From assembly GCA_951406725.2 (NCBI GenBank), contig OX597831.1, positions 71,300,001 through 71,364,000 on the forward strand: 64,000 nt of DNA, in the 5' to 3' direction. Shown here piece after piece: positions 3,126 to 64,000 of this stretch; positions within the stretch are counted from its first letter, which is position 1; each line of letters opens with the position of its first letter. The notes under the pieces were generated by a model, which was given only the letters and a program-made list of their open reading frames with translations, was not told the DNA's origin and searched no databases. The position numbers and the translations under genes were made by a program. The DNA is from Octopus vulgaris (taxonomy: Eukaryota).

Positions 3126-3317
3126 TCAGAATGCTACCTCAGTAAATATTGCTTAACCTATGCCATCATGAAAAAGGCAAATATAAAAGCAATGATTGTT
3201 GTCGTTGTTGTTGTCGATACTGCTGTTGTTGTTCTTCTTCTTGTTTCTAAATTACTGAATCATATTTTGTTATCCATTCTACTCTTCTAAATCCAACTAT
3301 TTCTGCTTTCAATCCAG

Positions 3318-3380
3318 GGATGATCCCATTGAAAAGATTTTAGCAAACCTAGATAAACAGAGAATCAAAAGTAATTTACG
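3318..3380 (+). CDS. Internal coding exon of a glutamate carboxypeptidase II / NAALADase-like (M28B) gene
   Basis: Acceptor ttctgctttcaatccag and donor CG|gtaagt. Reads DDPIEKILANLDKQRIKSNL(R), resembling GCPII 'KAFLDELKAENIKKFLY'. Ends in phase 2, matching the phase of the exon at 58189. Confidence 0.8.
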
Positions 3381-3964
3381 GTAAGTTTCTATTTATTTCA
3401 CCTTTTTTTCTTATTTCTTTTTTCTTATTGTTTCCCCTTTCACCCACTCACACCCTCTCTCTTGTCTTTCTTTCTCTCTTTCACTACTTTTCCTATCTTC
3501 CTCTCTTCTCTCATCGTTCTTTATTTCCTTTTCCTCGTCATGTTTTCTATTTGTTTTTGACTTCTCTTGCCTCATCTTTGTCTCTATGAATCCAATTATC
3601 AGTTGCTCTCTTTCTCTCCTTATCAACCTCCTGTCCCCTTTTCTCTTTCTCTCTCCCACTTTCATAATACCAATTATTTCTTAGAACAATGCAACTAGAA
3701 AACAAAATAAGAAAATGATAATGATGAGAGCAAGATAGAAAGGGTCATTTTGTTGACCCTGGGTGACTCTTTTCACAAACTATGATGTGGAAGAAGGTTG
3801 GTCCATCGTTCCAGTTTCTCTGGCATACAGCAAGCGGATACATGCTGCACATCTGGTAAAAGTGCCAGGATGTTGAGTTGTTGGCAAAAGTCTTGCTACT
3901 GTACAGTTGACCTGCTCTGTGTCACTAATGCTGCTGCTATTAGTGACTAGGTATACTTGTTTTT

Positions 3965-7166: not shown

Positions 7167-7334
7167 AGTGGCTGTGTGGTAAGTAGCTTGCTAACCAACC
7201 ACATGGTTCCGGGGTTCAGTCCCACTGCATGGCATCATGGGCGAGTGTCTTCTACTATAGCCCCGGGCCGACCAATGCCTTGTGAGTGGATTTGGTAGAC
7301 GGAAACTGAAAGAAGCCTGTCGTATATATGTATG

Positions 7335-7367
<33 letters not shown>

Positions 7368-7830
7368 TTGTATGTCTGTGTATGTTCCCCTAGCATTGCT
7401 TGACAACCGATGCTGGTGTGTTTATGTCCCCGTCACTTAGCGGTTCGGCAAAAGAGACCGATATAATAAGTACTGGGCTTACAAAGAATAAGTCCCAGAG
7501 TCGATTTGCTCGACTAAAAGCGGTGCTCCAGCATGGGCACAGTCAAATAACTGAAACAAGTAAAAGGAGTAGCTGTGTGGTAAGTAGCTTCCTTATGTGT
7601 GTGTATATGCTTGTGTGTCTGTGTTTGTTCCCCCAACATCGCTTGACAACCAATGCTGGTGTGTTTATGTCCCCGTAAATTAGCGGTTCAGCAAAAGAGA
7701 CCAATAGAATAAGTACTAGGCTTACAAAGAATGAGTCCTGAGGTTGATTTGCTTGACTAAAGGCGGTGCTTCAGCATGGACACAGTCAAATAACTGAAAC
7801 AAGTAAAAGAGTAAAAGAGAGTAAAAGAGT
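7167..7830 (+). mobile_element. SINE family A full copy followed by a second, internally deleted copy
   Basis: A-box-like tggctgtgtgg, B-box-like ggttcagtccc, internal microsatellite, duplicated 3' half. Confidence 0.85.
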
Positions 7831-11300: not shown

Positions 11301-12206
11301 GGTAGGTAGGCAGGTACATGCATGCATGTGTATGTCAGACAGGTTTCCATACAGTTTACTAAATTTTAAGCTCATAGCATTGCTTAACTTGGGCTGTGTT
11401 AGAATACCTAAGGTACCATACACTAAACTGAAACAAAGCACTATATAGTTGTTAAATGAACTTTGTAACCATACAGCTATGCTTGAGTTTCTCAAAACAA
11501 ATATATTTGTTGTTTTATCATGTTTTAAACACGATGTACACATACACACAAACACACTCTCTTTTTTTCTTGATGATAAGATGTAAAGAAATTAAATGGA
11601 AGTGCTTCTACATATAAGTATGTGTATGTGAATGCATATATATGTGCATGTGCGTGTATATATAGACACACACAAACACTTGCACACACACACACACACA
11701 CACACGCGCGCGCAAAGATACATGTATGTAAAAGTATGTTATACATACGCATATATACACATATTTATATTTTCAATTCCATTCAATTTGTTCAAATCTA
11801 GAGAAGAATACTTTTGCCCAACTGAGCGGCTGGTCCAATTATACAAAGATTTTATGTAAAGAATTAATGAGAGATAATGCCAGAAGCAATCTTTTGTTTA
11901 CTGAGCAATAAGCACACTTAGAAACAATATAAATTTGGACAAGAATATTTTCTCAAAAAACATTTCGCATATTTATGAATCATACAAATATTTAATTTAA
12001 TGATAAAGAAGGAATTTATCATTTGTAGCAGCCTGTATGTTCTTTATTTTGTTTGTAAATGAATAAAACCATTATTAATATATCCAGATCAGATAAATAA
12101 CTGCCTTCATTATCTTGCTGAAAAGAAAAGCTTGAATTTCCAGGTATTTTGTTGGTATTGTTGTTATTTAGTTTCAGGTTAGCTTTTATCTAGTAGACTT
12201 ATATTA

Positions 12207-12495
12207 CAGTTGTACACTGTCAACTTAATGTGACAGTCCCATAAAGGGAATCACACCACTGCTATTTAGCCCTAGCAGGCCTTGCTGCTCCAGACTGATG
12301 ACGAGGAAAGACTCAGAAACATGTCTCTGGTTGCAGGCTTAGCTGGATGGGGGTGCTTGTATCCCCCTTGTAAACATAAGGACACAAGAAATATGTGAAG
12401 GCTGACAGGAAGCGTTGATGCTTCCTAGGGCTAAATAGCGGTTGTGTGACAGTCCCTCTATGGGACTGTCATGTTAAGTTGACAGTTTACAACTG
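12207..12495 (+). mobile_element. Compact inverted-repeat element carrying a hammerhead motif (probably PLE-derived)
   Basis: Arms 12207-12275 and 12425-12495 are reverse complements; the hammerhead lies between them. Confidence 0.7.
12290..12330 (+). ncRNA. Minimal type-I hammerhead ribozyme motif
   Basis: CCAGA CTGATGA CGAG GAAAGA CTCA GAAA CATGTC TCTGG. Stem I CCAGA/TCTGG, canonical core, palindromic ACATGT stem III, predicted cut after C12325. Confidence 0.75.
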
Positions 12496-12752
12496 CTCTA
12501 TTGTTCCACCGCTGCTTATATCTCTCTGAGATATTTAGAAATTTAATATTTCTACTTATATTATAGTTTGTCTGTTAATACATTTTTCAATGAGCCTGTC
12601 CTATTTTGTCTTGGGGGTATGAAATTTTAGGGAGATTGGCTCATTTCTTTTTCATCTTGTCCGTTGACTTCCAGTGACTATTTTCTATGATACATCTGTC
12701 TGTTTGATAATTACATTCGTCCTCAGGAGTTCCATTCTCATTCTAACATTAA

Positions 12753-12972
12753 CCCTTTCATTACCGTATTTATTTTGAGATGATCTGTGTTTCTTTGAAT
12801 TACTTAAAATGTAATAAAGAATTTAGTAAAATAACTTAGTTATCATTCAGCTAGTGTTAGGAACATAAATTGTGACTAAGGTTTGGTGGAAGATTTTAAT
12901 TCAAAACTTACAAAAACAAGACATTTGTACTCAGAGCCAGAGGCAGTTTTGGCCGGGTTGGTAATGAAAGGG
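12753..12972. mobile_element. piggyBac-type MITE
   Basis: TTAA on both sides; TIR ccctttcattacc / ggtaatgaaaggg. A reverse copy lies at 61289. Confidence 0.85.
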
Positions 12973-14137
12973 TTAAAGATTATTATTAAATCATACAGAA
13001 TCCTTGCTAATCTCTGATGAGGAGCTGCAGTTTCCGAATATTATCATTTCCCCCATCAGCCATGTCTAACATCTTCATACATAAATATATACAAACTAGC
13101 AAGAATGAAGCTGTTCTGAAATAGTCTGGCTAATTTCTCACCAACGCTGACGAACTTGCTTGTAAAAGTTGAAACCTGTTAAGATAGGTATGTTGATGAG
13201 AATAATGCTGGAAGATTTCCTTCAGCTGCTTCAAGGATATAATTTGTTGTTTGATTCATGGATGTACCAAACATATTATTATGATAAACATAGGAACAAT
13301 CATATTGTCTTAACATTCATTGTAGTTTCATGTCTCAGTTTATTTGCCAGTTGTTTAAAATATGTTAACACAGCATTCTTGTTAGCAAAATAGACAACTT
13401 GTAAATTAGCGACTTCTTGTTCTCCTAAGGCATCAAATCTTAATGCATCTCTCAATATATAATAACTCCTATTTATTATTATATGATATATTTCATGAAC
13501 ATAGAACATTTTCATGACATTTTGTGTCATTTTAAAACAAACTGTCTACATGTCATCTCGATGGCATTTTTTTGCACTTTGTTGATGTCATCTACATCAA
13601 AGGTTCTCGACCCATTTTGGCCAAAGGCCTCCTTTTGGAGTCACAAATGCCCCCCCCCCCCCGAACATATTTTTATTTTTCAGTATACTACTTATTTTGA
13701 TATCAGCAGATAATGGTTAAAAAATAAAGGACGTTGTTTTACATATGCGCTTGTACGCAGTCGAGAGTACAGATGTACAAATTGAAATGCAAAAAAGAAA
13801 AAAACCAAATAAGGAATTGAAAGTTTGGTAATTGAGTTTATTAGCACCACGTGACACTTATGAGATCAACATGTTGTCTATCGAAAGAGTGCTCTTTGGT
13901 ACAAGTAAATGCCTATAAAATCACTTCAAACCTTTCCGATTTCCCTTATCAAAATAGCTGGAACTTGTGCATAAGTTATTGTCACCCAGGAGGAGAATTT
14001 TTTATGCCCAAGAAAGAGAGTGTATTTGATAGAAATTGTTGAAATACATATGTACTTCATATGAGTAGCAAATTGTGGAGGATGTTATCCACTGTACTTG
14101 GATCTAGTTAGAGTCACAAAATCAAACCCCTTTTAAA

Positions 14138-14700: not shown

Positions 14701-15351
14701 CGAAAATTTGTCATCTTAAGCATTCATTTCTTATTCAGGATCTAGTTTGTTTCATTCACTAAATTTGCATTTTTTTAAAAGGAAGTAGAAAATCTGACAA
14801 TTGGTTATCTTGATGCAGTTTTCCATGGTTATTCCTATGAAGACATGAACTTCTGGAGACAAAATTTGACACGCACAAATTTTTTTTTTAATTTGTGGTT
14901 TTAAAATATGGAATCTGAATCGACCATTAGTTTCTCTTTATAATTTCTAAATAACACTATACTTCTGTGTACCAGACATTTAGCTGTTATTTTTAGCATA
15001 ACGAGTTTTCTGGTGAGATCTTCATTTGCCTTCATTGCCTGTTTGTTGCTTCTGTAGAAATCTACGGATACACAAATGCAGAAAATGGAGAAAATGAAAG
15101 AAACGTGGACAACTTGTTCCAAAACACCCCTATCCATTTTCTTGAAAGTTAAGACGAACTTGAAGTGAACTTCGGTGAATTTTTGGAAATCCCCCACCCC
15201 CCAATATCTGCATGATATAACACTTATTCATAGAAAATTTCATTAAAAAACATCCATTTTTCTGAAAGTTATGATGATCCAATGTCGGAGATGGTGGGGT
15301 GGGGGGACAGAAATCTGTATTTATGTCATATGTATGTATGTATGTATGTAT

Positions 15352-15540
15352 CACGTGTGTACCGTTGGCAATTTTTTTCCTCTGTCTTCCCTTCTCTGGA
15401 TCTTTCCTTCTCCTATGCTTCTGACGAAGAGCTCCGCTCGAACCGTTAAACCCTCCTTCTTTCCTGAGCATCCAATAATACTATATTTGTTCCACGTCCT
15501 CGCGTCGTGTTTTTTTGTGCTTTCTTGTTTGGATTAACTC
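15352..15540 (+). mobile_element. PLE pseudo-LTR-like remnant with hammerhead-like motif (15417-15452)
   Basis: CTGACGA A GAGC TCC GCTC GAAC CGTTA AACC (GAAA altered to GAAC), microsatellite-flanked. Paralog at 17462. Confidence 0.6.
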
Positions 15541-15584
<44 letters not shown>

Positions 15585-17433: not shown

Positions 17434-17461
17434 GTGTGTATGTGTGTGTGTGTGTGTGTGA

Positions 17462-17650
17462 CCACATGTGTATCGTTGGCGATTTTTTTCCTCCATCTTC
17501 TCTTCCTTGGATCTTTCCTTTTCCTCTGTTTCTGACGAAGAGCTCCGCTTGAAATGTTAAATACTCCTTCTTTCTTTCCTTTCCTGAACATCCAATAACA
17601 CTATACTTGTTCCACATTCTCGCGTTGTGTTTTCATGTTTGAATTAACTA
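17462..17650 (+). mobile_element. PLE pseudo-LTR-like remnant with hammerhead-like motif (17528-17563)
   Basis: GTTT CTGACGA A GAGC TCC GCTT GAAA TGTTA AAT; same family as 15352. Confidence 0.6.
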
Positions 17651-18667
17651 TATATATATATATGCACGAGTCATCTAAAAGTCCATAAGTCAGTTACCAT
17701 ATTCCCTTCCATATCAGCTAACTCTGATGAGTGTAAGGTTATAGAATTGGATTGTTACCTAGCACTCCATTGTATTCCTAGTGCGAAACTGATTGATATG
17801 ATCAGCTATGATGGATACATAATACTGTACGTTTTTGATAATATATTATAGTAAAAAAGAATTTTGATAAGAGGATTTTCCCCACATGGTGATTTGTAGT
17901 GAAAAAATATATAAATAAAGAGGGAAAATTCACACAGTTTATATATTTTTGATTTTTTAAAGGATGCTTGTTTGTATGTGTGTATGCATGCACACGTGCA
18001 CGTGCACACACACACATGTGCATATATACATGTATGATGGCTTCATCTGTATTTCAAACCAATGCCATTGCTTGGCTGTTCCCTTAAAGCAGTATGAATG
18101 TGGCTTTTCAGTCTTGCTAGGGACCTATACTCTTTTGCTCAGATATGACAATAATGGGTGCCTCTTGCAGCAGGTGTTCAGAGAGCTTACCACTCATGCT
18201 AACTTTCATTCCATCATGGAATTTTTCATTGAATGTTTTACCTTTTCCAGCTACAATAAGGCATAGCATGCCAAACATTATAGAGATGCAAAAATCAAGC
18301 AATATCTGTGATAAAAAGCCTTGTGCAGTGATGAAAGGCTTTGCACAGTAGCAATTCTATTCTCTAAATAATGCATGCCTTTACCCCAAACAAAGAACTA
18401 GTCTACACACACACATATACATACATACATACATACATACATACATACATACATACATACACATATACATACATACATACATACATACATACATACATAC
18501 ATACATACATACATACACATATACATACATACATACATACATACACATATACATACATACATACTTTTTTCTCTCTCACATATTCTTACTCACACAGAAA
18601 ACTCATGTGAGAGAATGACATGGAGATTTTGCAAATTGAATATTTGCATCTGAATTATTATTACATA

Positions 18668-20669: not shown

Positions 20670-21070
20670 CGCAGGAGTGGCTGTGTGGTAAGTAGCTTGC
20701 TAACCAACCACATGGTTCTGGGTTCAGTCCCACTGCGTGGCATCTTGGGCAAGTGTCTTCTGCTATAGCCGCGGGCTGACCAATGCCTTGTGAGTGGATT
20801 TGGTAGACGGAAACTAAAAGAAGCCTGTCATATATATGTATATATATATGTATGTGTGTGTATGTGTGTATGTTTGTGTTTGTCCCCCTGGCATTGCTTG
20901 ACAACCGATGCTGGTGTGTTTATGTCCCCGTCACTTAGCGGTTCGGCAAAAGAGACCAATAGAATAAGTACTGGGCTTACAAAGAATAAGTCCCGGGGTC
21001 GAGTTGCTCGATTAAAGGTGGTGCTCCAGCATGGCCGCAGTCAAATGACTGAAACAAGTAAAAGAGTAAA
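20670..21070 (+). mobile_element. SINE family A full copy
   Basis: Complete head, internal microsatellite and (gagtaaaa) tail. Confidence 0.9.
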
Positions 21071-21325
21071 AGATTATGCATATGTAAACCTACTCTTGTG
21101 TGTCTTTGTGTTTGTGTTTGTCTCCTTCCATTTGACAACTGGTGTTGGTGTGTTTATGTCCTTGCAATTTCGCAGAAGAGACTGCTGTCACTTTGTGGAT
21201 GTTCCACTGGGTTAAAGGTGAGAGGGCCAAGTGGTCTCTATGTTTGTTTGTTACTATGTAGGCACCTAAACAACTAGCGAAAGCTTGATACATGCTACCA
21301 AGCCAGGCTCACTCACATATACACT

Positions 21326-21365
<40 letters not shown>

Positions 21366-23361
21366 CAGTAGTAGTGTTGCATTATTGTAGTTTGCGTTTT
21401 ACATGACAGTGTCATGTGACCCAATCCAGTGGTCGTGCGATGAAGACTAGGCTGCTAGATATGTGATGCATGTGACTGCAGTTTTATTTCATTATTCATT
21501 TCAGGCCGGTGGAAGCAAGGGGATTTGAGTCTATTGTATTATTTTGATAAACACTTTGCTCTGCGATTACTTTAATGTTCTTGAAGAAGCCCTCCCCCTT
21601 TCTGGGAAAATATACATTTACAGTCTATTTGGCAATAACAATTTTCTTTAATTGATAATATAACAATGGTGTTAGCAATAGGATATTAGGATTTAGAAAA
21701 TTAATGCTGTCTGATCTCGAGATGTTAAGATGCCTGATCTGAAGATGCTTAAGATGTCTATTAGCTAGCCTGTACTAGAACAAAGAAGCTCAAAAGTTCT
21801 ACTGATAGTAAAGTAATAACTGATCTCTTCTTATCTAAAGCAAGGACTGAGAATATTAGAAGTGTCTTTGTGATGGAGAAAATGAACTTCTCAGAGACTA
21901 TAATGTCCTCAATGAGACCAAAAGAAGAAGATTATTATTGTTGAAAGGCATATTTTCTGAATCTGAAGCAAAACTCACTGGAGTTAATACAATGATATAA
22001 TGAAAGATTATATTAATGGTTTAAAAACAATTTTACATTAATCTGATGGTTTTTGGAATGTAACACCCTTGATAGTCGAGGGATTATTGTAAGTTCTGAT
22101 TCTCAGCCTACGTCAGATACTGAGACAGGATCACACAAGCTGACTGATTTGGTTTGAGCTAACCATCAAATCCCAAGTTCTGTTAAAGCTCAGGAAATAA
22201 CAACAGTGAATACTCCTCTTGGATTCAGGTATCAGATGTATTGCCATACTGTATAAAAACAGTAAGCACTGTATTTCTGTGTGCCATGAAAAATACATTA
22301 GATGCCACCACTATAATTGTTTTAGATATCACTGTTTAACTAATTTGGTAAAATGAGATTTGCTTTGATGGCTGCACCACTGATGCCCTGGAACACAAAA
22401 ATTAAAGGCATTTTGTAAGAAACTCACCTCCCGTCATTTGGCTACTAGTGACATGTGGAATATCTTTTGTACTGAAGATTTGACCTTTCTAGGATATAAT
22501 GTCTCCAAACAGGGTATTCAACCAAAGGATACATTTGTGAAGAAAATATTGGAAGTAATATTCGTGTCAGTGGCATGTAAATGCACCCACTACACTCTCA
22601 GAATGGTTGGTGATAGGAAGAGCATCCAGCTGTAGAAACTCTGCAAGATCAAATCGGAGTCTGGTGCAGCCATCTGGTTCACCAGACCTCAGTTAAATCG
22701 TCCAACCCATGCTAGCATGGAAAACGGACGTTAAATGATGATGATGATTCCCAGAGAGTAGAAAAGAACTAGAATCACTTTAAGAAATAGCTAATAGACA
22801 TTGCAACTCTTGTTGTAACTACAATGTCTTTTACTCATGCCTAGCGTATGAAATTGTGTTGTTGTTAACGTCACCTTCCTCCTTCTACTCCTCCTCCAGC
22901 AGTTTGCTGGTGTCACTTTTCCTGGTGATTTGTGTTTACTGTCTATGTAGGTCTCTCAGACTAAAAACATTAAAGAGAAAATATTTGTATTTGGGAGGAG
23001 GTGTCACAAGAGACCAAAACAACAGCATTAATCTTAAGAAGTGCTCTAGACTAGAGAAATTTTGTTGAAGGGTATTTTCCTAGTCAGAATTGAATGCACT
23101 TCTAAATTTGAACAATGAACAATAGACAAAGGATTCTAGCAAGTTGCCAATCAAATCATACCAAATCATTTATCAAAAGTAGACAAAATAGGTGCAGGAG
23201 TGGCTGTGTGGAAAGTAGCTTGCTAACCAACCACATGGTTCCGGGTTCAGTCCCGCTGCATGGCATCTTGGGCAGGTGTCTTCTGCTATAGCCCCGGGCC
23301 GACCAATGCCTTGTGAGTGGATTTGGTAGACGGAAACTGAAAGAGGCCTGTCGTAGATATG

Positions 23362-23394
<33 letters not shown>

Positions 23395-24480
23395 TTGTGT
23401 GTGTTTGTCCCCCTAGCATTGCTTGACAACCGATGCTGGTGTGTTTGCGTCCCCGTCACTTAGCGGTTCGGCAAAAGAGACCGATAGAATAAGTACTGGG
23501 CTTACAAAGAATAAGTCCCGGGGTCGATTTGCCCGACTAAAGGCGGTGCTCCAGCATGGCCGCAGTCAAATGACTGAAACAAGTAAAAGAGTAAAAGAGT
23601 AAGAGTAAGAGTAATATAGGTGTTAGAAGTTACTTAGTGCATACACTGACACAAGCAGTACCTAAGAATAATTAATATAGATTGAAAAAAGAATTGTTAC
23701 CATTGAGTTTGTGATCAACGAGAATCTAGATTAAGGAAGCAAAGAGATTTTAAGCAATGGATTGCTAAAACAACAATGATGCAAAGAGGTAAGAAAAGAT
23801 AAGAAGCCAGTTGTAAAGAATTTGAATTATAGAAAGATAGCTCTATGCTGTATGTAATCAAGATAGGAAGTTGTGTAAGGAGAACTCATTGAATAAATTA
23901 AGATATAGAAAAATAGTATTAGTGAAGTAGAAAAGTAAGGACCAATTGATGGTCTCTGAGAATGGAATCAATGTCTGTTATGAATGGAAGGCAGCCAAAC
24001 AGTTAATTGATAAGTTTGTTGAACTGGTTTGTAAGAAACGGTAGTCATAAAAGCAAGTTTAGATGTGATTGAGTAAGATTGTCGAGAAGTTGGAAAAAGA
24101 AATATTTAGGACATATTGGTGAAGAGAACTTTTTACCTACACCAAATTAATTAATCGTTTCCAGGAATATTGGGATTGAGGAGAATTAAACTCTACATGG
24201 AAACCAAACAGGAAGCATGTAAAAAATTGTAACTAACCTCATAATGTTGGGAGCTAAATTAGATTGAATCAGTTCTTGTATGTTAATAGTGTTTATATCT
24301 TAAATTATGGGAGAATAAAAGGCAATGGTGTCTTCTGTCTCCAAGGTGTGAAAGAATTTAAATTCAGAATAGTGACAATGAACAGAATAGTGGTAATGAA
24401 CTTTAGAAAGATGGTTGCAGTCGGTAAAATTAACCCTGCCACTAGATTATTAGTTATTTTATTGAGCCTGGAATATTGGT
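21326..24480 (+). mobile_element. Heavily decayed Gypsy LTR retrotransposon with nested SINEs
   Basis: Putative LTR tg...aaca (21326-21665) and PBS-like tggtgttagcaataggat. RT remnants AQEITTVNTPLG and LTFLGYNVSKQGIQPKDTFVKKILEV/..PESRKELES. The 3' boundary is uncertain. Confidence 0.55.
23190..23612 (+). mobile_element. SINE family A full copy
   Basis: Complete head to tail; aataggtg on the left and tataggtg on the right resemble a TSD. Confidence 0.9.
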
Positions 24481-32302: not shown

Positions 32303-33107
32303 AGGCGCAAGAGTGGCTGTGTGGTAAGTAGCTTGATTACCAACCACATGGTTCCAGGTTCAGTCCCACTGCGTGGCACCTTGGACAAGTGTCTTCTACT
32401 ATAGTCTCGGGCCGACCAAAGCCTTGTGAGTGGATTTGGTAGACGGAAACTGAAAGAAGCCCGTCGTATATATGTATATATATATATGTGTTTGTGTGTC
32501 TGTGTTTGTCCCCCTAGTATTGCTTGACAACCGATGCTGGTGTGTTTATATCCCCGTCACTAAGCGGTTCAGCAAAAGAGACCGATAGAATAAGTACTGG
32601 GCTTACAAAGAATAAGTCCCGGGTCGAGTTGCTCGATTAAAGGTGGTGCCCCAGCATGGCCGCAGTCAAATGACTGAAACAAGTAAAAGAGTAAAGAGTA
32701 TATACACTGGCATGTGCATACATCACTTACCTTTTATCTTTTACTTGTTTCAATAATTTGACTGTTGCCATGCTGGGGCCTTAAAGGGTTTTACTCAAAC
32801 AAATTGACACCAGGACATATTTTTTTTAGACCTAGTACTTATTCTATCAGTCTTTTTTTTTTTGCCAAATCACTAAGTTACAGGAATGGAGGACAAAATC
32901 AGACACAAACAGGCACACATAGATATAGATACAAACATATGTATATGATGGGCTTCTTTCAGTTTCCATCTACCAAATCCACTCACAAGGCTTTGGTTGG
33001 CCCAAGACTATAGTAGAAGATATTTACCCAAGTTGCTATTCAGTAGGACTGAACCCAGAACCATGTGGTTGGAAAGCAAGCTTCTCACCACACAGCCACA
33101 GCTGCAC
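32303..33107. mobile_element. Adjacent tail-to-tail family A SINEs (+ 32303-32700, - 32730-33107)
   Basis: Full forward copy immediately followed by an older reverse copy. Confidence 0.8.
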
Positions 33108-36534: not shown

Positions 36535-37557
36535 TATATATATATATCAATAATAAAGGGTGAAATTAATTAATTTAGAAATAATCATTAATTTCACCAA
36601 GTAGAGTTCGGCATGTAAAAGCCCCATTCAAGGAAGGTTTAAGTAATACTAAGTAATTAAGGGTTTAGCAACGATTTACCTCACCACACACCGAATTTAG
36701 AAATAGCAGTCAAAAAGTTTTGGCTATTCTTTCTACTTAAAAGGGAGATCCCAGTAAAACCAAAGCACTTAAAAAGCAAACGACGCAGACAAAAGAGAAA
36801 GAAATGATGAAAATCATTCTATATTAAGTCACCTACGGACGTACGTTTCGGAATTATATATATACTCATAAATATTTAGGCCTAACACAGTATTTATTAG
36901 TTAAATTTGAAGTATTTATGCTATAGTTGTTAAATCTTTAGAATGTTAAAACCGATGTGAATTCAGCTTTTTACTTTCTTCGTACACAGAAAAATAAAGG
37001 AAAATTGTTGTGACATGTTTCACAGTTCATTGACCTCTCATCAGAGGAGAAGTACACCATCATTCTTTTTCCCTAGGAAAGAACTTATAGCCTATAGCTA
37101 TTTATTCAGAAGACAACCTAGAACTTAGCTGCAGTAGCTAAACTAATCTGCATACTGCACAATTGCTGGCGGCATATTTATATAGTTAAATTTATCTATG
37201 TACAACACAGCGTGGATTAGAAAACCTGAAATGTATTCAGAGTTGTTAAACTGCAGTTTTTAAGCGTATCTCTGTGGCACTTTATACAGATGTGAATACA
37301 ACTGCTTGCTTCTGTTGTAGATAGACAAATAAAGCTAGTTTATCCTGACATGTTTCATAGTCTCTGATTTTTTGTCTGTGCAAAGAGAATATTTGTTTAC
37401 TTTCCAAAGCTTTCCATAGTGAAGTTGTTACAAACTGTAGTCTAGCTACTTTGATTTTAATACTGATTTCCTAATACATGCTGGTTTTATATAAAAATAG
37501 TTAGTAAATAATTCATCATGCCGTCAGTTAATTATATGTGTGTGTGTGTGTGTATGT

Positions 37558-47095: not shown

Positions 47096-47493
47096 TACTC
47101 TTTACTCTTTTACTTGTTTCAGTCATTTGACTGTGGCCATGCTGGAGCATCGCCTTTAGTCGAGCAAATCAACCCAGGGACTTATTCTTTGGAAGCTCAG
47201 TACTTATTCTATCAGTCTCTTTTGCCGAATCGCTAAGTGACGGGGACGTAAACACACCAGCATCGGTTGTCAAGCAATGCTAGGGGGACGAACACAGACA
47301 CACAAACACACAGACGCATACATATATACATATATACGACGGGCTTCTTTCAGTTTCCGTCTACCAAATCCACTCACAAGGTATTGGTCGGCTATAGTAG
47401 AAGACACTTGTCCAAGATGCCATGCAGTGGGACTGAACCCGGAACCATGTGGTTGGTTAGCAAGCTACTTACCACACAGCCACTCCTGCGCCT
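47096..47493 (-). mobile_element. SINE family A reverse copy
   Basis: Near-complete reverse complement of family A. Confidence 0.9.
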
Positions 47494-48267
47494 ATTTATA
47501 TTTATATAAAAAAAATCACGGGGCCTCATAAAAAACATTGGTGTGGATGCTGGTGCCACGTAAAAAGTACTATTGATGGTTTCACATTAAAAGCCTCCAG
47601 TACACTCTGTGGAGTGAGTAGTTGGTGTTAGGAAGGGCATCCAGCCATAAATACCAAACCAAACCAGACTATGGAATATGATGTGGCCCCCTGACCTTGA
47701 CAGTTCCTGTCAAGTTGTCCAACCCATGCCAGCATCGTAAATGGATGTTAAATGATGACGCTGATGTACGTCTGTTGTTGTTGGTTGAGGAGGACTATTG
47801 TAGAAGTCTTTCCAATTGTGACCATCCCTGTTTTGTATAACATACTGTATTTAAAACAACTTTAGCTAATGTATCAGTTGATTGGTGCGTGATTTGTTGG
47901 AGATTTGGCTGCTATTTTTAGCAGATTGTGTGACTATGTGTAGACTGTCTCATTACTATGTGTGTGTGGTTATGTGTGTAATGGTGTGTGTGTATGAGTG
48001 CACGTGTGTGTGTGTGTGGTATATATGTGTGTATGTATGGTAAACAGTTTTCAATCTTCTGTAAAAGCATGTCCAGCCATAGGAAAATATTACCATACAT
48101 GGAAACAAGTGAGGGTTGGTGACAGGAAGAGCATCCGACTGTGGAAAATTTGCCTCAACAAATTCCATCTGACCTACGTAAGCATGAAAAGGGAAGCGGA
48201 AAATGACAATGACAATGGCAACAACAACAACAATAATGATGATGATGCGGTGGAGGAGGATATATAT

Positions 48268-48682
48268 ATTTCTTTATTACCCGCAAGGGGCTACACACAG
48301 AGGGGACAAACAAGGACAGACAAAGGGATTAAGTTGATTACATCGACCCCAGTGCGTAACTGGTACTTATTTAATCGACCCCGAAAGGATGAAAGGCAAA
48401 GTCGACCTCGGCGGAATTTGAACTCAGGATGTAACGGCAGACGAAATACTTATTTCTTTACTACCCACAAGGGGCTAAACACAGAAAGGACAAACAAGGA
48501 CAGACAAACGGATTAAGTCGATTATATCGACCCCAGTGCATAACTGGTACTTATTTAATCGACCCCGAAAGGATGAAAGGCAAAGTCGACCTCGGCAGAA
48601 TTTGAACTCAGGACGTAACAGCAAACAAAATACGGCTACACATTTCGCCTGGCATGCTAACGTTTTTGCCAGCTCACCGCCT
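48268..48682 (-). mobile_element. SINE family B head-to-tail dimer with one TSD
   Basis: Two body units, one tRNA head, flanked by tggaggaggatatata. Confidence 0.85.
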
Positions 48683-49633: not shown

Positions 49634-50621
49634 CTGGTCTGCAAATACTTTTTACAGCCCTAATCGATGAACAGGTAATCTCACACCTACAGCAGGTGGT
49701 GTTTGAAATAGGGACAGGAGTTATAGATCTCATGTCTTGAGTTTAAAAGAGATTCCAGATCCAGGGAGTCTTTAACGCTCCTTGCCTGCCCTGCTATGTA
49801 AAGCTTGCATCATCTGCTCCCATTTGTGTAGGACTGCAGCTGCTCTATGATCCTCCATTTAATTTCTTATGGAGTTCTTTAATCCTTAAGGTGCCACATA
49901 TGGCTAGCCAGGGATATGATGTAATGTCTTTCTGGAACCCTAAAAGAGGACCTGTGGTTGCACAGGCATATATACATATACATGAATACATACACACACA
50001 AGCACATTTATATAATGAATAAAAGCATAATTTCACTAATAAATCTCTCCCATTCTAAAGAGAGAATTCACTGGGTGATATCGATGCTGCTGTGAGAATA
50101 TTTCTCAACACTTCCTTCTTTTTCATGGTAGGATTTTGTTGGTTAATTAGCATCTGTAGATAAGATAGAATGCATCTATGATACATCTCAACATCCTCCT
50201 CTCTGAGCAGCAGCATTCCCTCCCATTCATTGATGACTGTGTTGCTAGTAAGGAACATTGGGACAGAATTTCATGAAAAGATAAGAGATGTAAACACTTG
50301 TCACAACCTGATCATATAACATCTTCATCTTTAGTAACCTTACAGGGTTAGCCATGTGTGGCACCTTAAGGATTAAAGAACTCCATAAGAAATTAAATGG
50401 AGGATCATAGAGCAGCTGGAGTCCTACACAAATGGGAGCAGATGATGCAAGCTTTACATAGCACGGCAGGCAAGGAGCCTTAAAGACTCCCTGGATCTGG
50501 AATCTCTCTTAAACTCAAGACATGAGATATATAACTCCTGTCCCCATTTCAAACACTACCTGCTGTAGGTGTGTGATTCCCTGTTCATCGATTAGGGCTG
50601 TAAAAAGTACTTGCAGACCAG
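49634..50621. repeat. Long inverted repeat (about 276-bp arms, about 436-bp spacer)
   Basis: 49634-49909 is the reverse complement of 50346-50621 with scattered substitutions. Confidence 0.92.
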
Positions 50622-55632: not shown

Positions 55633-55829
55633 ATGCATTCAGTTTATTGGGAAAAAGCAGTTGTCATGAACTCACCGATGTATTATGTCTGTTTTTCCCA
55701 AAACTACAATGGTTTCTGCTTTTATGAATTGGTATACACTGTGTACCATCACTATACTATCAGTATTTCAGTTTGATACTTTTGGTTTGGTCGTTCTCCC
55801 AGGTGTTTCAATGATTCCATGTGAGCCCA

Positions 55830-56431
55830 CCTATTTCTTTACTACCCACAATGGGCTAAGCACAGAGGGGACAAACAAGGACAGACACACAGATTAAGTC
55901 GATTACATCGACCTCAGTGCGTAACTGGTACTTATTTAATCAACACCGAAAGGATAAAAAGCAAAGTCGACCTCGGCGGAATTTGAACTCAGAACGTAGC
56001 GGCAGACGAAATACCTATTTCTTTACTACCCACAAGGGACTAAACACAGAGGGGACAAACAAGGACAGACACACGGATTAAGTCGATTACATCGACCCCA
56101 GTGCGTAACTGGTACTTATTTAATCGACCCCAAAAGGATAAAAGGCAAAGTCGACCTCGGCGGAATTTGAACTCAGAATGTAGCGGCAGATGAAATACCT
56201 ATTTCTTTACTACCCACAAGGGGCTAAACACAGAGGGGACAAACAAGGACAGACACACGGATTAAGTCGATTACATCGACCCCAGTGCGTAACTGGTACT
56301 TATTTAATCGACCTCGAAAGGATACAAGGCAAAGTCGACCTCGGCGGAATTTGAACTCAGAATGTAACGGCAGACGAAATACTGCTAAGCATTTCGCCTG
56401 GCATGCTAACGTTTCTACCAGCTCGCCGCCC
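55830..56431 (-). mobile_element. SINE family B head-to-tail trimer (184-bp period) with one TSD
   Basis: Units start at 55830, 56014 and 56198 with a single head. Flanked by catgtgagc(c/a)cacc. Confidence 0.9.
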
Positions 56432-58188: not shown

Positions 58189-58345
58189 AGACTACACACA
58201 AAAACCTCGTTTAACAGGAACGCCTGGTGAGAAAGAATTAGTGGATAAAATCTTTAACACATGGAAGGAGAATGGCTTGACTGGCGTTGTTATCACACCA
58301 TATAGAATTCTTATGTCATATCCAAACATAACTCAACCAAATCAG
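58189..58345 (+). CDS. Internal coding exon of a glutamate carboxypeptidase II / NAALADase-like (FOLH1/NAALAD2-like) gene
   Basis: Polypyrimidine acceptor ...cttgtttatccag and donor CAG|gtaaat. Reads (R)DYTQKPRLTGTPGEKELVDKIFNTWKENGLTGVVITPYRILMSYPNITQPNQ, colinear with GCPII '[52 protein letters not shown]'. Confidence 0.92.
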
Positions 58346-58847: not shown

Positions 58848-59263
58848 GGCGCAGGAGTGGCTGTGTGGTAAGTAGCTTGCTAACTAACCACATGGTTCTG
58901 GGTTCAGTCCCACTGCGTGGCATCTTGGGCAAGTGTCTTCTGCTGTAGCCCCGGGCCGACCAATGCCTTGTGAGTGGATTTGGTAGACGGAAACTGAAAG
59001 AAGCTCTTCGTATATATGTATATAGGTGTATGTATGTGTGTGTGTTTGTGTGTCTGTGTTTGTTCCCCTAGCATTGCTTGACAACCAATGCTGGCGTGTT
59101 TATGTCCCCGTCACTTAGCGGTTCAGCAAAAGAGACCGATAGAATAAGTACTGGGCTTACAAAAAATAAGTCCTTGGGTCTAGTTGCTCGACTAAAGGTG
59201 GTGCTCCAGCATGGCTGCAGTCAAATGACTGGAACAAGTAATAGAGAAAAAGAGTAAAAGAGT
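58848..59263 (+). mobile_element. SINE family A full copy
   Basis: Complete head to tail. Confidence 0.9.
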
Positions 59264-59718: not shown

Positions 59719-60342
59719 TTAATCAAGTTATGAAAGACTTTTGCCTGTGCTTCTCAGAAAGTTGGAGTTGGAGATCATTGTTAGGCTACTGCTCCATAAC
59801 TCAATACCTCCATATATACACAGAAAAATCAGAAATAGCTATTTTACTGTGGCATTATGATTCATGACGGAAAATGTTTAGTGGATGGACTTAATATTTG
59901 AAAAGCCAGGTTTTACATTTTTTTTGTCGAATGTTGTAGTTGTAGACCCATTCACGTATGTAACCAACATCTAATGTTATGGAAATGAGTTTAAAAAGAG
60001 GAATCAAAGAAAAACAGCAAACCACGCTGTTGTCAACTCATTGAAATATTCTTGATTCGATGACAGCTTAATAAAATTTTTACTTTCCCTTCTTCTAAAA
60101 GCTAAAACAATGAGATATGACATGAAGATAGATAATATCAGTTACTTAGTCATCGTAGTTTTAAATTTGATATGCATTTATTCCAAGACAGACTTATTCT
60201 AATGAAAGATCATAAAAGTAACAATGACTACATAAGAAATAAGATAGAAACACTTCTATGGAGGTGCTTGCAGAGATCACTCTAAGACTGCTGCTCCATA
60301 ATTCAGTATTCTACATAATAAAAGAAATAACTTTAGACCATA

Positions 60343-60754
60343 TTCTTTTACTCTTTTACTTGTTTCAGTCATTTGACTGCGGCCATGCTGGAGCACCGCT
60401 TTTAATCGAGCAACTCGACCCCGGGACTTATTCTTTTTTGTAAGCCCAGTACTTATTCTAGCGGTCTCTTTTGCCGAACCGCTAAGTGACGGGGACATAA
60501 GCACACCATCATCGGTTGTCGAGCAATGCTAGGGGGACAAACACAGACACACAAACATATACACCTACATACATATATATACACATATATACGACAGGCT
60601 TCTTTCAGTTTTCATCTACCAAATCCACTCACAAGGTTTTGGTCGGCCCGAGGCTATAGTAGAAGACACTTGCTCAAGGTGCCACTCAGTGGGACTGAAC
60701 CCGGAACCATGTGGTTGGTAAACAAGCTACTTACCACACAGCCACTCCTGCGCC
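60343..60754 (-). mobile_element. SINE family A full reverse copy
   Basis: Complete reverse complement of family A. Confidence 0.9.
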
Positions 60755-60759
60755 TGTTT

Positions 60760-62160
60760 AACCAATGTCACTCTGAATGCCACAGTATTCTATGTGCCCT
60801 TCTTTACAATTGTGTCTACATCAATGCATTACTTTTGCTTCCTGTCCCAAAGAGCAGTATCAGGCCTATTTTACTTACATTGGGTTGCTATTTTTATTGA
60901 AATATTCCACCATACTGGTTCTAGCGCGCCTTTGGTATGGCCATCAAGGCAATCCTTCATATAGCATTGTCTTGGCAACAGTGTAATGTATCAGAGTAAG
61001 GTAGTATCTTGCAAATAGTTTTGGATGGCTGCTGATGACATGGGTGGTATTTTTCACTCTGGTATGGCAAGCTTGACATTTTCTGTCACAATGGGGAGGT
61101 CTAAAAGCATCCTTATTGCTCTTGTTGATTAGATATTTAATAGTTATCTCCTGCTCCTGGACAACAAATGTGAGCCTTTTTCAGTAAGATGTGGTATATT
61201 TCTCCAGGAGAAGCTGCTATTCTTGTCAATGTTGTTGGTACTCTCTTGCTTCAAGGGTATATATTTATGCATTCAAGTCTCTGTTTAACCCTTCCATTAC
61301 CAGCCTGGCTGAAACCGGCTCTAGTTCTGAGTACAAATGTCTTGTTTTCATAAGTTTTAAATTAAAATCTTCCAACATACCTTAGTCACAATTTATGTTC
61401 CTAACACTAGCTGAATGATAACTAAGTTATTTTATTAAATTCTTTGTTATATTTAAAGTAATTGAAAGAAACACGGAGCATCTCAAAATAAATACAGTAA
61501 CGAAAGGGTTAAGCTGGTCAGTCCAGTAACACTTGGAGTACCTGTCCAGGAGTTTTTTTTTACCTATCTCACCATGTAATTACCTTCATTGTTAAGTGAT
61601 GTGATGCGCTCATTTCTCTCTTTACTGTCCAGTAGGTGTTGTCTAAGTGATAGGATGCAGAATCTTGACTGGCTCGGGCTCCTTCCCACACTTGTCCCTT
61701 TAACATAGATTCTGTGAGTGTCACTGTTGATGTGGAAGTTACAAGTGATTGCTAGTATATTTCTAGTCTTGATGTCCAAACTGTAGATTTCTTCAAGTGT
61801 CTAATCAAATATCCTAAACGTTGGTACTAGCACAGGCACAGTGAAAGTATTGTAGGATTTCGTTATATTGAATGCAGGCAGCTCTGACTCTCACAGCTTC
61901 TGAAGTAGTGATTTGTCTCTAGTTATACTTACAGCACCAACATATAAAATATTTTCATTTATCCTGAGGTATTTGTACTATTCATCACCAATGATAGGAA
62001 TGAAAGCCAAGCCATTGGTATCTATCTCTTTGCTTGCTTAGTAATTTATTCTTTGTTTCAGTATCAAACATGAACACTTACCCTAATCAAATCCCATTCC
62101 TTTGTCCCTTGAAAATGTTCTGACCATTTCTAAATGTCTGTGGAGTCTTGAATGTTAACT
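60760..62160 (-). mobile_element. Decayed R4/Dong-clade non-LTR retrotransposon
   Basis: Minus frames ESELPAFNITKSYNTFTVPVL...LDIKTRNILAITCNFHINSDTHRIYV, PKLFARYY...TVAK and NRPDTALWD (restriction-like endonuclease region). Confidence 0.7.
61289..61508. mobile_element. piggyBac-type MITE nested in the R4-like element
   Basis: TTAA-flanked; reverse copy of 12753-12972. Confidence 0.85.
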
Positions 62161-62175
62161 CAAGCATAGCTTTAA

Positions 62176-63258
62176 CCCTTTCGTTACTATATTTCTGACC
62201 AAAATACACCCCTCGTGAGTTTCAATTAAATTCTAAAATAATCATGAATCTAGGCTTGTTTCATTAAATAACTGTAACTTTTTTAGTTATCAACATATTA
62301 ATGTGATATTTGGAACATAATTAAAGAAAGGGTTCTTAATCAATTCTATTGCATAACTTTTGTCTCAAAGTGACTTTAATTACAGGTAAATCCAGGTAAA
62401 TTGAGCAAAAGGTAAAAATATTAAAATTTTGTTTAAACATCACCATAGAAAATGAATCATCAACTAATATTCAAATGGGTATGCAACAAAATTTTGATAA
62501 AGAAGAATTGTGCACATCACTATATCATCAGTTGAATTTAATGCACAACAGGTGTACCATAAAGGTGGAATAAAGTGAAATACAGGAATCCACCGTAAGT
62601 TTGACCGAACTAAAGAAATCGGTCAAAAAATAATATACGGCCCTGGTTATGGTATGGAAGTGATAAATTCCAGACCACATCGTTCCCTAGGCCATGCTGA
62701 CTAACATTATTTTCCCTGTATAAAACTAAATCCACGAGGTACCCAGTATTTGCTTCACAAATTTTCCGAAATTTGAACCCCCATTTTGTGTTTGTTTACA
62801 TTCTGCGTAAGTTTGTTTCCGCATTGATCGCTTCAAACAATAACTTCCAGACCACATCATACCCTAAGCCATGCTGACTAACATTAGTTTCCCTGTATAA
62901 AAATTAAATCCACAACAGTACCCAGTATTTGTTTCACAAATTTTCCGATTCAGAATCAATGCTTGATAACATGAAACTCCTATCCATTTTCAAAGTTGAA
63001 GAAAAATCGATGCCGAAAAAAATGTGGAAATAAATCTCCCAAAATTCAGGGAATTAAAATTACACGTCGATCATTGTACAAAACTGTAGATGAATTGTTT
63101 ACGAAGCATAATCACGTGTTTTCACGAATGTACTAAAGTGATTTGCTCTGATATTCTCATTTAAATATGAATAGGTAAATTCGGGCGGCTTTGGGCAGTT
63201 TGGTCACATTAACCAATATTTTTTTCGAGCTGCTTTGGGCAGTTTGGTAACGAAAGGG
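62176..63258. mobile_element. About 1.1-kb non-autonomous piggyBac-type element
   Basis: TTAA ccctttcgttac ... gtaacgaaaggg TTAA. Internal ~100-bp direct repeat near 62668 and 62845; subterminal gctttgggcagtttggt twice. Confidence 0.8.
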
Positions 63259-63355: not shown

Positions 63356-64000
63356 GGACTCACTGCTAGGATAAAAAGTAATGTAGATGGACTCACTGCT
63401 AGGACAAAAAGTAATATAGATGGACTCACTGCTAGGACAAAATGTAATATAGATGGACTCACTGCTAGGACAAAAAGTAATATTGATGGACTCACTGCTA
63501 GGATAAAAAGTAATATAGATGGACTCACTGCTAGGACAAAAAGTAATGTAGATGGACTCACTGCTAGGACAAAAAGTAATGTAGATGGACTCACTGCTAG
63601 GACAAAAAGTAATATAGATGGACTCACTGCTAGGACAAAAAGTAATATAGATGGACTCACTGCTAGGACAAAAAGTAATATAGATGGACTCACTGCTAGG
63701 ACAAAAAGTAATATAGATGGACTCACTGCTAGGACAAAAAGTAATGTAGATGGACTCACTGCTAGGACAAAAAGTAATGTAGATGGACTCACTGCTAGGA
63801 CATAATGTAGATGGACTCACTGCTAGGACAAAAAGTAATATAGATGGACTCACTGCTAGGACAAAAAGTAATGTAGATGGACTCACTACTAGGACAAAAA
63901 GTAATGTAGATGGACTCACTGCTAGGACAAAAAGTAATGTAGATGGACTCACTGCTAGGACAAAAAGCAATATAGATGGACTCACTGCTAGGACAAAAAG
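63356..64000. repeat. 33-bp minisatellite, about 19-20 units, running off the window end
   Basis: Unit gatggactcactgctaggacaaaaagtaat(a/g)ta; one unit near 63802 lacks 5 bp. Confidence 0.95.

Follow-up and report, generated by a model that had tools for sequence, protein, structure and literature searches.

A high-copy repeat with a hammerhead motif and a PLE-type insertion pattern in an intron of Octopus vulgaris

Insertions of Penelope-like elements (PLEs) are described as an inverted 5'-truncated copy with a tail of 30-40 bp (PMC8557442). Target-site duplications of 8-10 bp, a 31-bp tail and an overlap at the inverted junction are also reported, and self-priming has been proposed for the head-to-head junctions (PMC3846280). 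In vitro, the protein of the anole PLE PAc nicks AT-rich DNA on both strands and extends each of them; reverse transcription starts at two internal sites, between which the tail lies, and hammerhead cleavage is not needed (PMC11167929). PLEs account for 6.83% of the O. vulgaris genome; of their 190 consensus families, 31 were recently active (PMC13282606).

The hammerhead motifs of PLEs are mostly minimal; the canonical metazoan hammerhead has a helix I of 6 bp, a helix II of 4 bp and a palindromic helix III of 1-2 bp (PMC4209133; PMC7761336). With a weak helix III, the canonical type I hammerhead is reported to perform best as a dimer (PMC4209133). In the axolotl retrozyme HHR_Amex2, which cleaves, helix II begins with a U-U mismatch at its base (PMC7229834). 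So far, the link between animal retrozymes and PLE enzymes consists of co-occurrence and sequence similarity, the mechanism being left open in these sources (PMC7229834; 10.64898/2026.07.22.740005). The sample of the retrozyme survey contains no molluscs (10.64898/2026.07.22.740005).

The window analysed here is a stretch of 64,000 nt of O. vulgaris DNA (GCA_951406725.2, contig OX597831.1, positions 71,300,001 to 71,364,000), and all positions below refer to it. It contains a small element that combines inverted arms with a hammerhead motif.

Anatomy of the element and its surroundings

The element consists of a 69-nt inverted copy and a 282-nt forward unit that includes a 58-nt tail. Its length is set at 347 nt because the family ends at about 12208 and 12553/4 and a 10-bp repeat lies just outside. 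The features of the element and of its host gene are as follows, with the basis of each in brackets.

12197..12206, + strand: target-site duplication, left copy, 10 bp, AT-rich (ACTTATATTA)
12207..12275, - strand: left arm, 69 nt, an inverted, truncated and tail-less copy of 12425-12495 (BLASTN and alignment)
12272..12275, no strand: head-to-head junction, 4-nt palindromic microhomology CTAG (sequence)
12272..12553, + strand: forward unit, 282 nt, GC 0.45 (0.447), non-coding (contig depth, frames)
12272..12346, + strand: predicted extended helix I around the hammerhead, with 12272-76 paired to 12342-46 (forward unit, minimum-energy fold)
12289..12331, + strand: type I hammerhead motif with a predicted cut at 12325/12326 (sequence motif and family variants)
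12408..12425, + strand: small hairpin GGAAGC/GCTTCC (fold); its sole variant among the 40 of 81 family differences listed sits in the loop, at 12416
12425..12495, + strand: right arm, part of the forward unit (BLASTN and alignment)
12446..12472, + strand: perfect local hairpin (12448-56 pairing with 12462-70), rare in the family (depth drop at 12447)
12496..12553, + strand: unpaired tail, 58 nt, single-sided in the present copy (family depth to 12553/4)
12554..12563, + strand: target-site duplication, right copy, 10 bp (direct-repeat match to 12197-12206)
about 3318..3380, + strand: host exon upstream of a 54.8-kb intron (tblastn, 22/22 identical to P0001 residues 98-119, which map to 3316-3381)
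58189..58345, + strand: next host exon (100% identical to P0001 residues 119-172)

Arms of about 70 bp pairing end to end had been noted in the initial annotation, and the alignment agrees: 62 of 71 columns are paired, with seven mismatches and one 2-nt gap. Inside the window, BLASTN recovers the pair at 87% over 71 (E 4e-19). The stretch 12207-12495 folds at -151.6 kcal/mol (z -13.1), and none of 200 shuffles was equally good. Folded without the left arm, the hammerhead region gives z values of -0.6 (12272-12343) and -0.85 (12272-12424), and the whole forward unit 12272-12553 gives -3.8. The arms account for most of the fold-stability signal of the element. The inner hairpins pointed out earlier (ggggg../ccccc and ggaagc/gcttcc) are present in the sequence. 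Within the element, CTAG occurs at 12272 and 12425 only. A BLASTN search within the 64,000 nt returned no second copy.

The initial annotation had delimited a self-contained unit of about 290 nt. This extent had to be revised, as the family runs on to 12553/4 and a perfect 10-bp direct repeat flanks 12207-12553, exactly outside the ends defined by contigs; the repeat is that of a single copy of the family. When position pairs were drawn at random with the same boundary freedom, 48 of 300,000 gave a repeat of 10 bp.

The source of P0001 names it an Octopus sinensis NAALADase 2 isoform. Because the exons at about 3318 and at 58189, both on the + strand, are consecutive in P0001, the element is placed in sense within a 54.8-kb intron of an Octopus NAALADase/glutamate carboxypeptidase II-like gene, and the sense orientation claimed at the outset stands. 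In the PDB, the frame 58190-58345 finds glutamate carboxypeptidase II (E 2.7e-07); the upstream exon (about 3318-3380) alone had no PDB match, and a Pfam scan of 22 short frames of the window gave no name for the host gene. Two further putative exons, near 11802 and 12088, were dropped, being unsupported by P0001.

Other repeats are scattered through the window. A ~229-bp element, presumably MITE-like, with perfect 17-bp terminal inverted repeats, occurs at 12749-12977 and 61284-61512 (copies 90% alike). Interspersed repeats of ~400 bp (7167-7571, 20671-21076, 23194-23601, 32303-32703, 47096-47497, 58850-59256 and 60339-60752) and tandem 184-bp units (48256-48681, 55829-56430) are what we take to be SINE-like sequences. 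A transposase remnant lies at 62613-62795 on the - strand (Pfam DDE_Tnp_1_7, E 3.5e-09). The end of the window, 63356-64000, is a tandem array of about 20 copies of a 33-bp unit with 95% matches and one open frame of ~155 codons per strand.

Copies of the family and their junctions

Evidence for the family was drawn from contigs of four public runs (X1, X3, X9, X16), placed on 11780-12740 at 80% likeness. X1 and X3 are DNA runs; X9 and X16 are RNA runs by guess. The four come from organism codes A and B, among four organism codes matched. Part of the stretch is contained in 20 of the 24 runs listed, half of it in none; no run recorded as RNA is on that list. The number of contigs placed was 2730 for X1, 2544 for X3, 98 for X9 and 44 for X16. 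Almost all of their depth falls within about 12208-12554. Relative to a single flank contig (depth 42.7), the summed depth in X3 is ~1,100-fold in the hammerhead core and ~2,900-fold in the tail; for the arms, where every copy counts double, it is 7,000-9,500-fold. As summed depth is no copy number, these ratios are read as an order of thousands only.

The sequences beyond the outer ends are heterogeneous and AT-rich. Among the 24 of 457 loose ends listed, those before 12208 comprise 25 contigs in each of X1 and X3 (agreement 0.55-0.56), and those behind 12553/12554 comprise 28 contigs in X1 and 23 and 38 in X3 (0.47-0.53). The left flank has zero cover in the four runs. A single right-flank contig (X3) spans 12528-12740 with one difference; only 26 of its letters fall inside the element, too few for a formal bridge across the junction. 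Among the differences listed, the present copy departs from the X1 majority (70% or more) at at least 16 positions in 282 nt. The element is a dispersed, aged member of a high-copy non-coding repeat family. The contigs show a high copy number and conserved boundaries, both of which the initial annotation had proposed to look for, the outer ends being fixed at about 12208 and 12553/4.

The inner junctions vary. Eight of the 15 joints listed, out of 32, connect a left arm ending at 12238-12275 with a forward unit starting at 12339-12520, and five further left-arm/forward-unit pairs are found among the 12 of 14 joints listed in another table. The latter also holds one partial tandem, leading from 12554 back to 12453. 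The joints are mostly single contigs of single-copy depth at 80% likeness, several with sides shorter than 30 letters. Since the inner junction differs from copy to copy, the inverted arms are likely a by-product of insertion. The notion of a self-contained hairpin RNA, in which the 58-nt tail had been missed, is not supported. Among the 15 of 32 joints listed, none leads from 12553 to 12272, as a complete head-to-tail copy would, and a retrozyme-type tandem source was therefore not seen among them.

Junctions at 12272 recur with various partners. The loose-end consensus at this position (26 contigs in X1, 25 in X3; agreement 0.62-0.63) has a partner at ~12347, judged by eye, which sits just outside the predicted extended helix I; 12512 (X1) and 12358 (X16) are other partners. 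Compared with a perfect inverse, ~6 of 30 letters of the consensus differ, four of them common to both DNA runs (by eye). It is possible that a fixed, imperfect long arm fits these departures equally well. The corresponding model is that of a fixed hairpin master of ~430 nt, in which a left arm of ~150 nt extends helix I and the hammerhead sits at the tip of the rod. It would move as one RNA, and the present copy would be an internal-deletion derivative; this model is the closest to the initial annotation. The commonest consensus at 12272 resembles, by eye, the reverse complement of 12347-12376 and abuts the exact base of the predicted extended helix I, and some of its departures from the perfect inverse, found in organism A as well as in B, would retain G-U pairs. 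However, outer ends that are fixed and inner junctions that vary widely in both arms are the opposite of what 5' truncation of such a master would leave, junctions at 12272 also have the partners 12358 and 12512, and the agreement of the consensus is just 0.62-0.63. A hairpin master is regarded as improbable, and the arms as likely products of insertion.

The hairpin gacagtccc/gggactgtc of the right arm, part of the initial annotation, is real in this sequence but not a feature of the family. In both DNA runs, depth collapses between 12443 and 12447, where 0.4-0.6% of the value at 12443 is left, for which reason a functional role in the family was rejected, and loose ends lie behind 12447 in all four runs. 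It is likely a local palindrome correction in the present copy, or else the mark of a small subfamily. The exact right-arm motif had no match in metagenome and viral contigs.

Small size, inverted repeats and high copy number are shared with MITEs, and a MITE (non-autonomous DNA transposon) whose terminal inverted repeats had captured a hammerhead would accommodate the ~70-bp repeats and the CAGT start after TA on the left. Yet the right repeat is not terminal, as the 58-nt tail extends beyond it and the 10-bp duplication lies outside this asymmetric tail; CT, not TA, follows the right arm, and arm length differs between copies. For its non-terminal right repeat, the position of the duplication and the variable arms, this identity was rejected as very improbable.

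The hammerhead motif

The core is formed by CTGATGA (12295-12301) and GAAA (12316-12319), with stem I between 12290-94 and 12326-30. The type I hammerhead with this stem and a predicted cut at 12325/12326 is thus found in the sequence as first annotated. Helix I has 5 bp here and would have 6 bp with the A that the family carries at 12331 (73-95% of depth). Helix II has 3 bp plus a variable 12302/12315 pair, and loop II has 6 nt. Helix III has 2 bp and is palindromic (12319-12324); positions 12321-22 are swapped in 33-100% of depth, and either version is palindromic. Position 12306 is C in 90-95% of the family depth. No catalytic-core variant occurs among the 40 of 81 family differences listed. 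Judged by its letters, the hammerhead is a canonical metazoan type I motif of the retrozyme type. Rfam gave no match at gathering score in the window and none at E up to 10 in 12000-12800.

The C-A mismatch at the base of helix II had been ascribed to CpG decay. In the family, 12302 varies as C>T (14-65% of depth) and 12315 as A>T (0-46%), and CpG decay at 12315 was rejected as the cause on these grounds; A>G at 12315 is absent among the 40 of 81 differences listed, a minority G being possible in the other 41. The A12315G repair that had been proposed would run counter to this natural variation. As the family varies at both positions in other ways, the mismatch looks like a variable 1x1 position of the family and not like decay of a single copy.

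In the present copy, the pair probability is 0.32-0.37 for helix I and 0.97-0.99 for helix II, and the hammerhead fold costs 7.6 kcal/mol compared with the minimum-energy fold. Since folding ignores tertiary contacts, the helix I value is weak evidence of low activity; the hammerhead of this lone copy is likely weak or silent.

A gapped version of the motif had no match in viral and prokaryote genome contigs. It was found at three distinct metagenome loci (L001:629-669; L002:314-353 and 1041-1080; L003:765-804), and these have nothing but the searched motif in common with the element. The three contigs are related (68-84%) and have ORFs of at most 113 residues; stem I and the palindromic helix III of their type I hammerhead are those of the element. 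Periods of ~1021 nt in L001 and ~727 nt in L002 are of the kind that tandem or circular units would give; the end of L002 is presumably a sequencing adapter.

Hammerhead cores of the minimal type reported for PLEs are present in the window at 15420-15450 (+), 17530-17560 (+) and 48866 (-). The first two lie in copies of a ~225-bp repeat (15329-15553 and 17439-17663; 78% alike) beside microsatellites. At 58678-58640 (-) lies another type I hammerhead-like core, in a decayed state, which shares the palindromic helix III of the element; no inverted arms were found around it, nor any likeness to the element beyond the core. Weaker cores occur at 37044 (-) and 13147 (+).

Mode of insertion and comparison with known systems

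The element displays a head-to-head inverted copy, a one-sided tail, a 10-bp AT-rich duplication and a hammerhead motif, all of them features of the PLE type. Insertion in the manner of PLEs, from whatever source, is held to be very probable. As to the source, the balance tips slightly in favour of a non-autonomous RNA of pseudo-LTR (pLTR) or retrozyme type, inserted by PLE enzymes in trans, of which the element would be a dispersed monomer.

In the proposed mechanism, the PLE protein would bind an uncleaved source RNA whose 5' end lies at 12272 or further upstream and which extends past 12553. The GIY-YIG endonuclease of the PLE would nick both strands of AT-rich DNA, 10 nt apart. Reverse transcription would begin at two internal sites ~58 nt apart, at 12553 and at ~12495-12499, and the stretch between them would become the 58-nt tail. 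The two cDNAs would end at variable points and then join head to head, in the present copy at CTAG. Alternatively, fold-back priming of a single cDNA would yield the same head-to-head product. When the antisense-strand DNA is folded, the 3' end is paired in the minimum-energy fold and unpaired in the centroid, which may lend weak support to fold-back priming. The role of the hammerhead would lie in the source RNA, where it would probably act as a dimer through the palindromic helix III.

The coding capacity bears on the source. Every frame of the forward unit has at least one stop within 12326-12447 that is removed by no family variant among the 40 of 81 differences listed. There is no ATG in 12480-12553, and the one frame of 40 residues has no protein match at E up to 10, which is weak evidence. 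An RT/GIY-YIG ORF is absent from the present insertion, with all frames closed; this statement concerns the insertion and not its source loci. The forward unit is non-coding, and the present insertion is not an autonomous PLE.

The main rival reading derives the element from an autonomous PLE, as its solo pLTR; the mechanism of insertion would be the same and the source different. A promoter in the pLTR would start transcripts at 12272, reverse transcription would begin internally, ~220-280 nt downstream, and the outcome would be thousands of short pLTR-plus-tail insertions with an inverted copy. The anatomy of the element is indeed identical to that of published PLE insertions, and internal initiation near the 5' end of a PLE RNA would alone fix both the 5' and the 3' ends. 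In some PLEs, helix III is described as small and palindromic and the base after A9 as bulged, and O. vulgaris has 190 PLE consensus families (PMC13282606). However, the ORFs of PAc and Pen2a, as described, begin in the pLTR and read through the tail, whereas the frames here are closed within 12326-12447. The lack of an ATG in the tail region points the same way, although there may be an intron, or the ORF may begin beyond the tail, as does, weakly, the unmatched 40-residue frame. The hammerhead is canonical, whereas the motifs at 15420, 17530 and 48866 of the same window look minimal. A solo pLTR is considered rather unlikely. Should the family prove to be the solo pLTR of an annotated PLE, it would be ordinary.

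Within the preferred reading, a non-autonomous RNA mobilised in trans, we tentatively suggest, at somewhat less than even confidence, that the family is an octopus retrozyme with a canonical hammerhead and that its dispersed monomers, thousands in number, bear the head-to-head copy and tail otherwise confined to PLEs. The commonest inner junction would then be set by the extended helix I of the ribozyme itself. If so, the genome would show directly that retrozyme RNAs are mobilised by PLE enzymes. A non-coding family with a canonical hammerhead and thousands of PLE-type junctions would make the retrozyme-PLE link testable by junction counts, and such counts in an existing assembly would also test the two-start-site against the fold-back model of PLE insertion.

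If the retrozyme reading is true, host introns would receive a preformed double-stranded substrate for ADAR with each insertion. On transcription of the host intron, the arms would form ~70 bp of double-stranded RNA. PLE-type insertions are a possible source of intronic double-stranded RNA. Octopuses show heavy A-to-I editing. In X16, 17 A>G and 14 T>C places were counted, against 7 and 9 in X1, 6 and 9 in X3, and 6 and 12 in X9; X9, equally an RNA run by guess, has no A>G excess. At 12372 and 12373, A>G reaches 46% in X16 and 0 in X1, from one contig. A loose end behind 12414 (X16) shows, by eye, four T>C changes that are absent among the genomic variants listed. Together these give only a hint of A-to-I hyper-editing of family copies. 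Elsewhere in the window, an inverted pair of 276 bp (49634-49909 and 50346-50621; 96% alike, ~440 nt apart) is another possible source of intronic double-stranded RNA.

The closest likeness is to the PLEs (Penelope/Poseidon, Neptune; PAc of Anolis; Pen2a of Adineta). The element shares with them a head-to-head truncated copy, a one-sided tail, a duplication in the 8-10 bp range at an AT-rich target, a type I hammerhead close to the repeat's 5' end and an occasional partial tandem. Unlike PLEs, its unit has no RT/GIY-YIG ORF or ORF start, its tail is 58 nt long instead of the usual 30-40 nt, and its hammerhead is canonical and not minimal.

The non-LTR retrozymes of metazoans (coral, mussel, axolotl, Xenopus), as described in PMC7229834 and 10.64898/2026.07.22.740005, resemble it in their non-coding unit of ~280 nt with GC under 50%, their canonical type I hammerhead with a palindromic helix III, the helix II base mismatch of HHR_Amex2, duplications of more than 4 bp, and thousands of copies, dispersed monomers among them. 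The forward unit lies within the size range of 150-450 nt, has GC under 50%, shows no LTR and apparently neither PBS nor PPT, and has a duplication longer than 4 bp; the family letters give a canonical type I hammerhead with a variable first pair of helix II. In contrast to these retrozymes, the element is single in the window, and no full head-to-tail joint is seen among the 15 of 32 listed. The inverted copy and the tail appear in neither main text by term search (PMC7229834; 10.64898/2026.07.22.740005). As far as sequence features go, the element has those of a retrozyme, yet it is not filed here as a non-LTR retrozyme.

Non-autonomous Chlamys PLEs such as MRC1 (PMC8557442) are likewise short non-coding derivatives, moved by PLE enzymes as is proposed for the octopus element. 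Unlike it, elements of the MRC1 type are described as forming pLTRs and head-to-tail multimers and as resembling their partners at the 3' end, and most Chlamys elements as being without canonical hammerheads (PMC8557442).

The initial annotation had proposed a small non-coding, ribozyme-bearing mobile element, retrozyme-like or a PLE pseudo-LTR derivative, and high copy number, fixed ends, the duplication, the lack of an ORF and the hammerhead motif all accord with this. The further suggestion of an undescribed system gives way to the anatomy, which is the published pattern of PLE insertions. No description of the family or of any octopus retrozyme was found in the literature searched, most subscription journals, Repbase and Dfam lying outside that search; the family may well already be in the O. 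vulgaris repeat library, Repbase or Dfam. The element looks like a new family of a known kind and not a new system.
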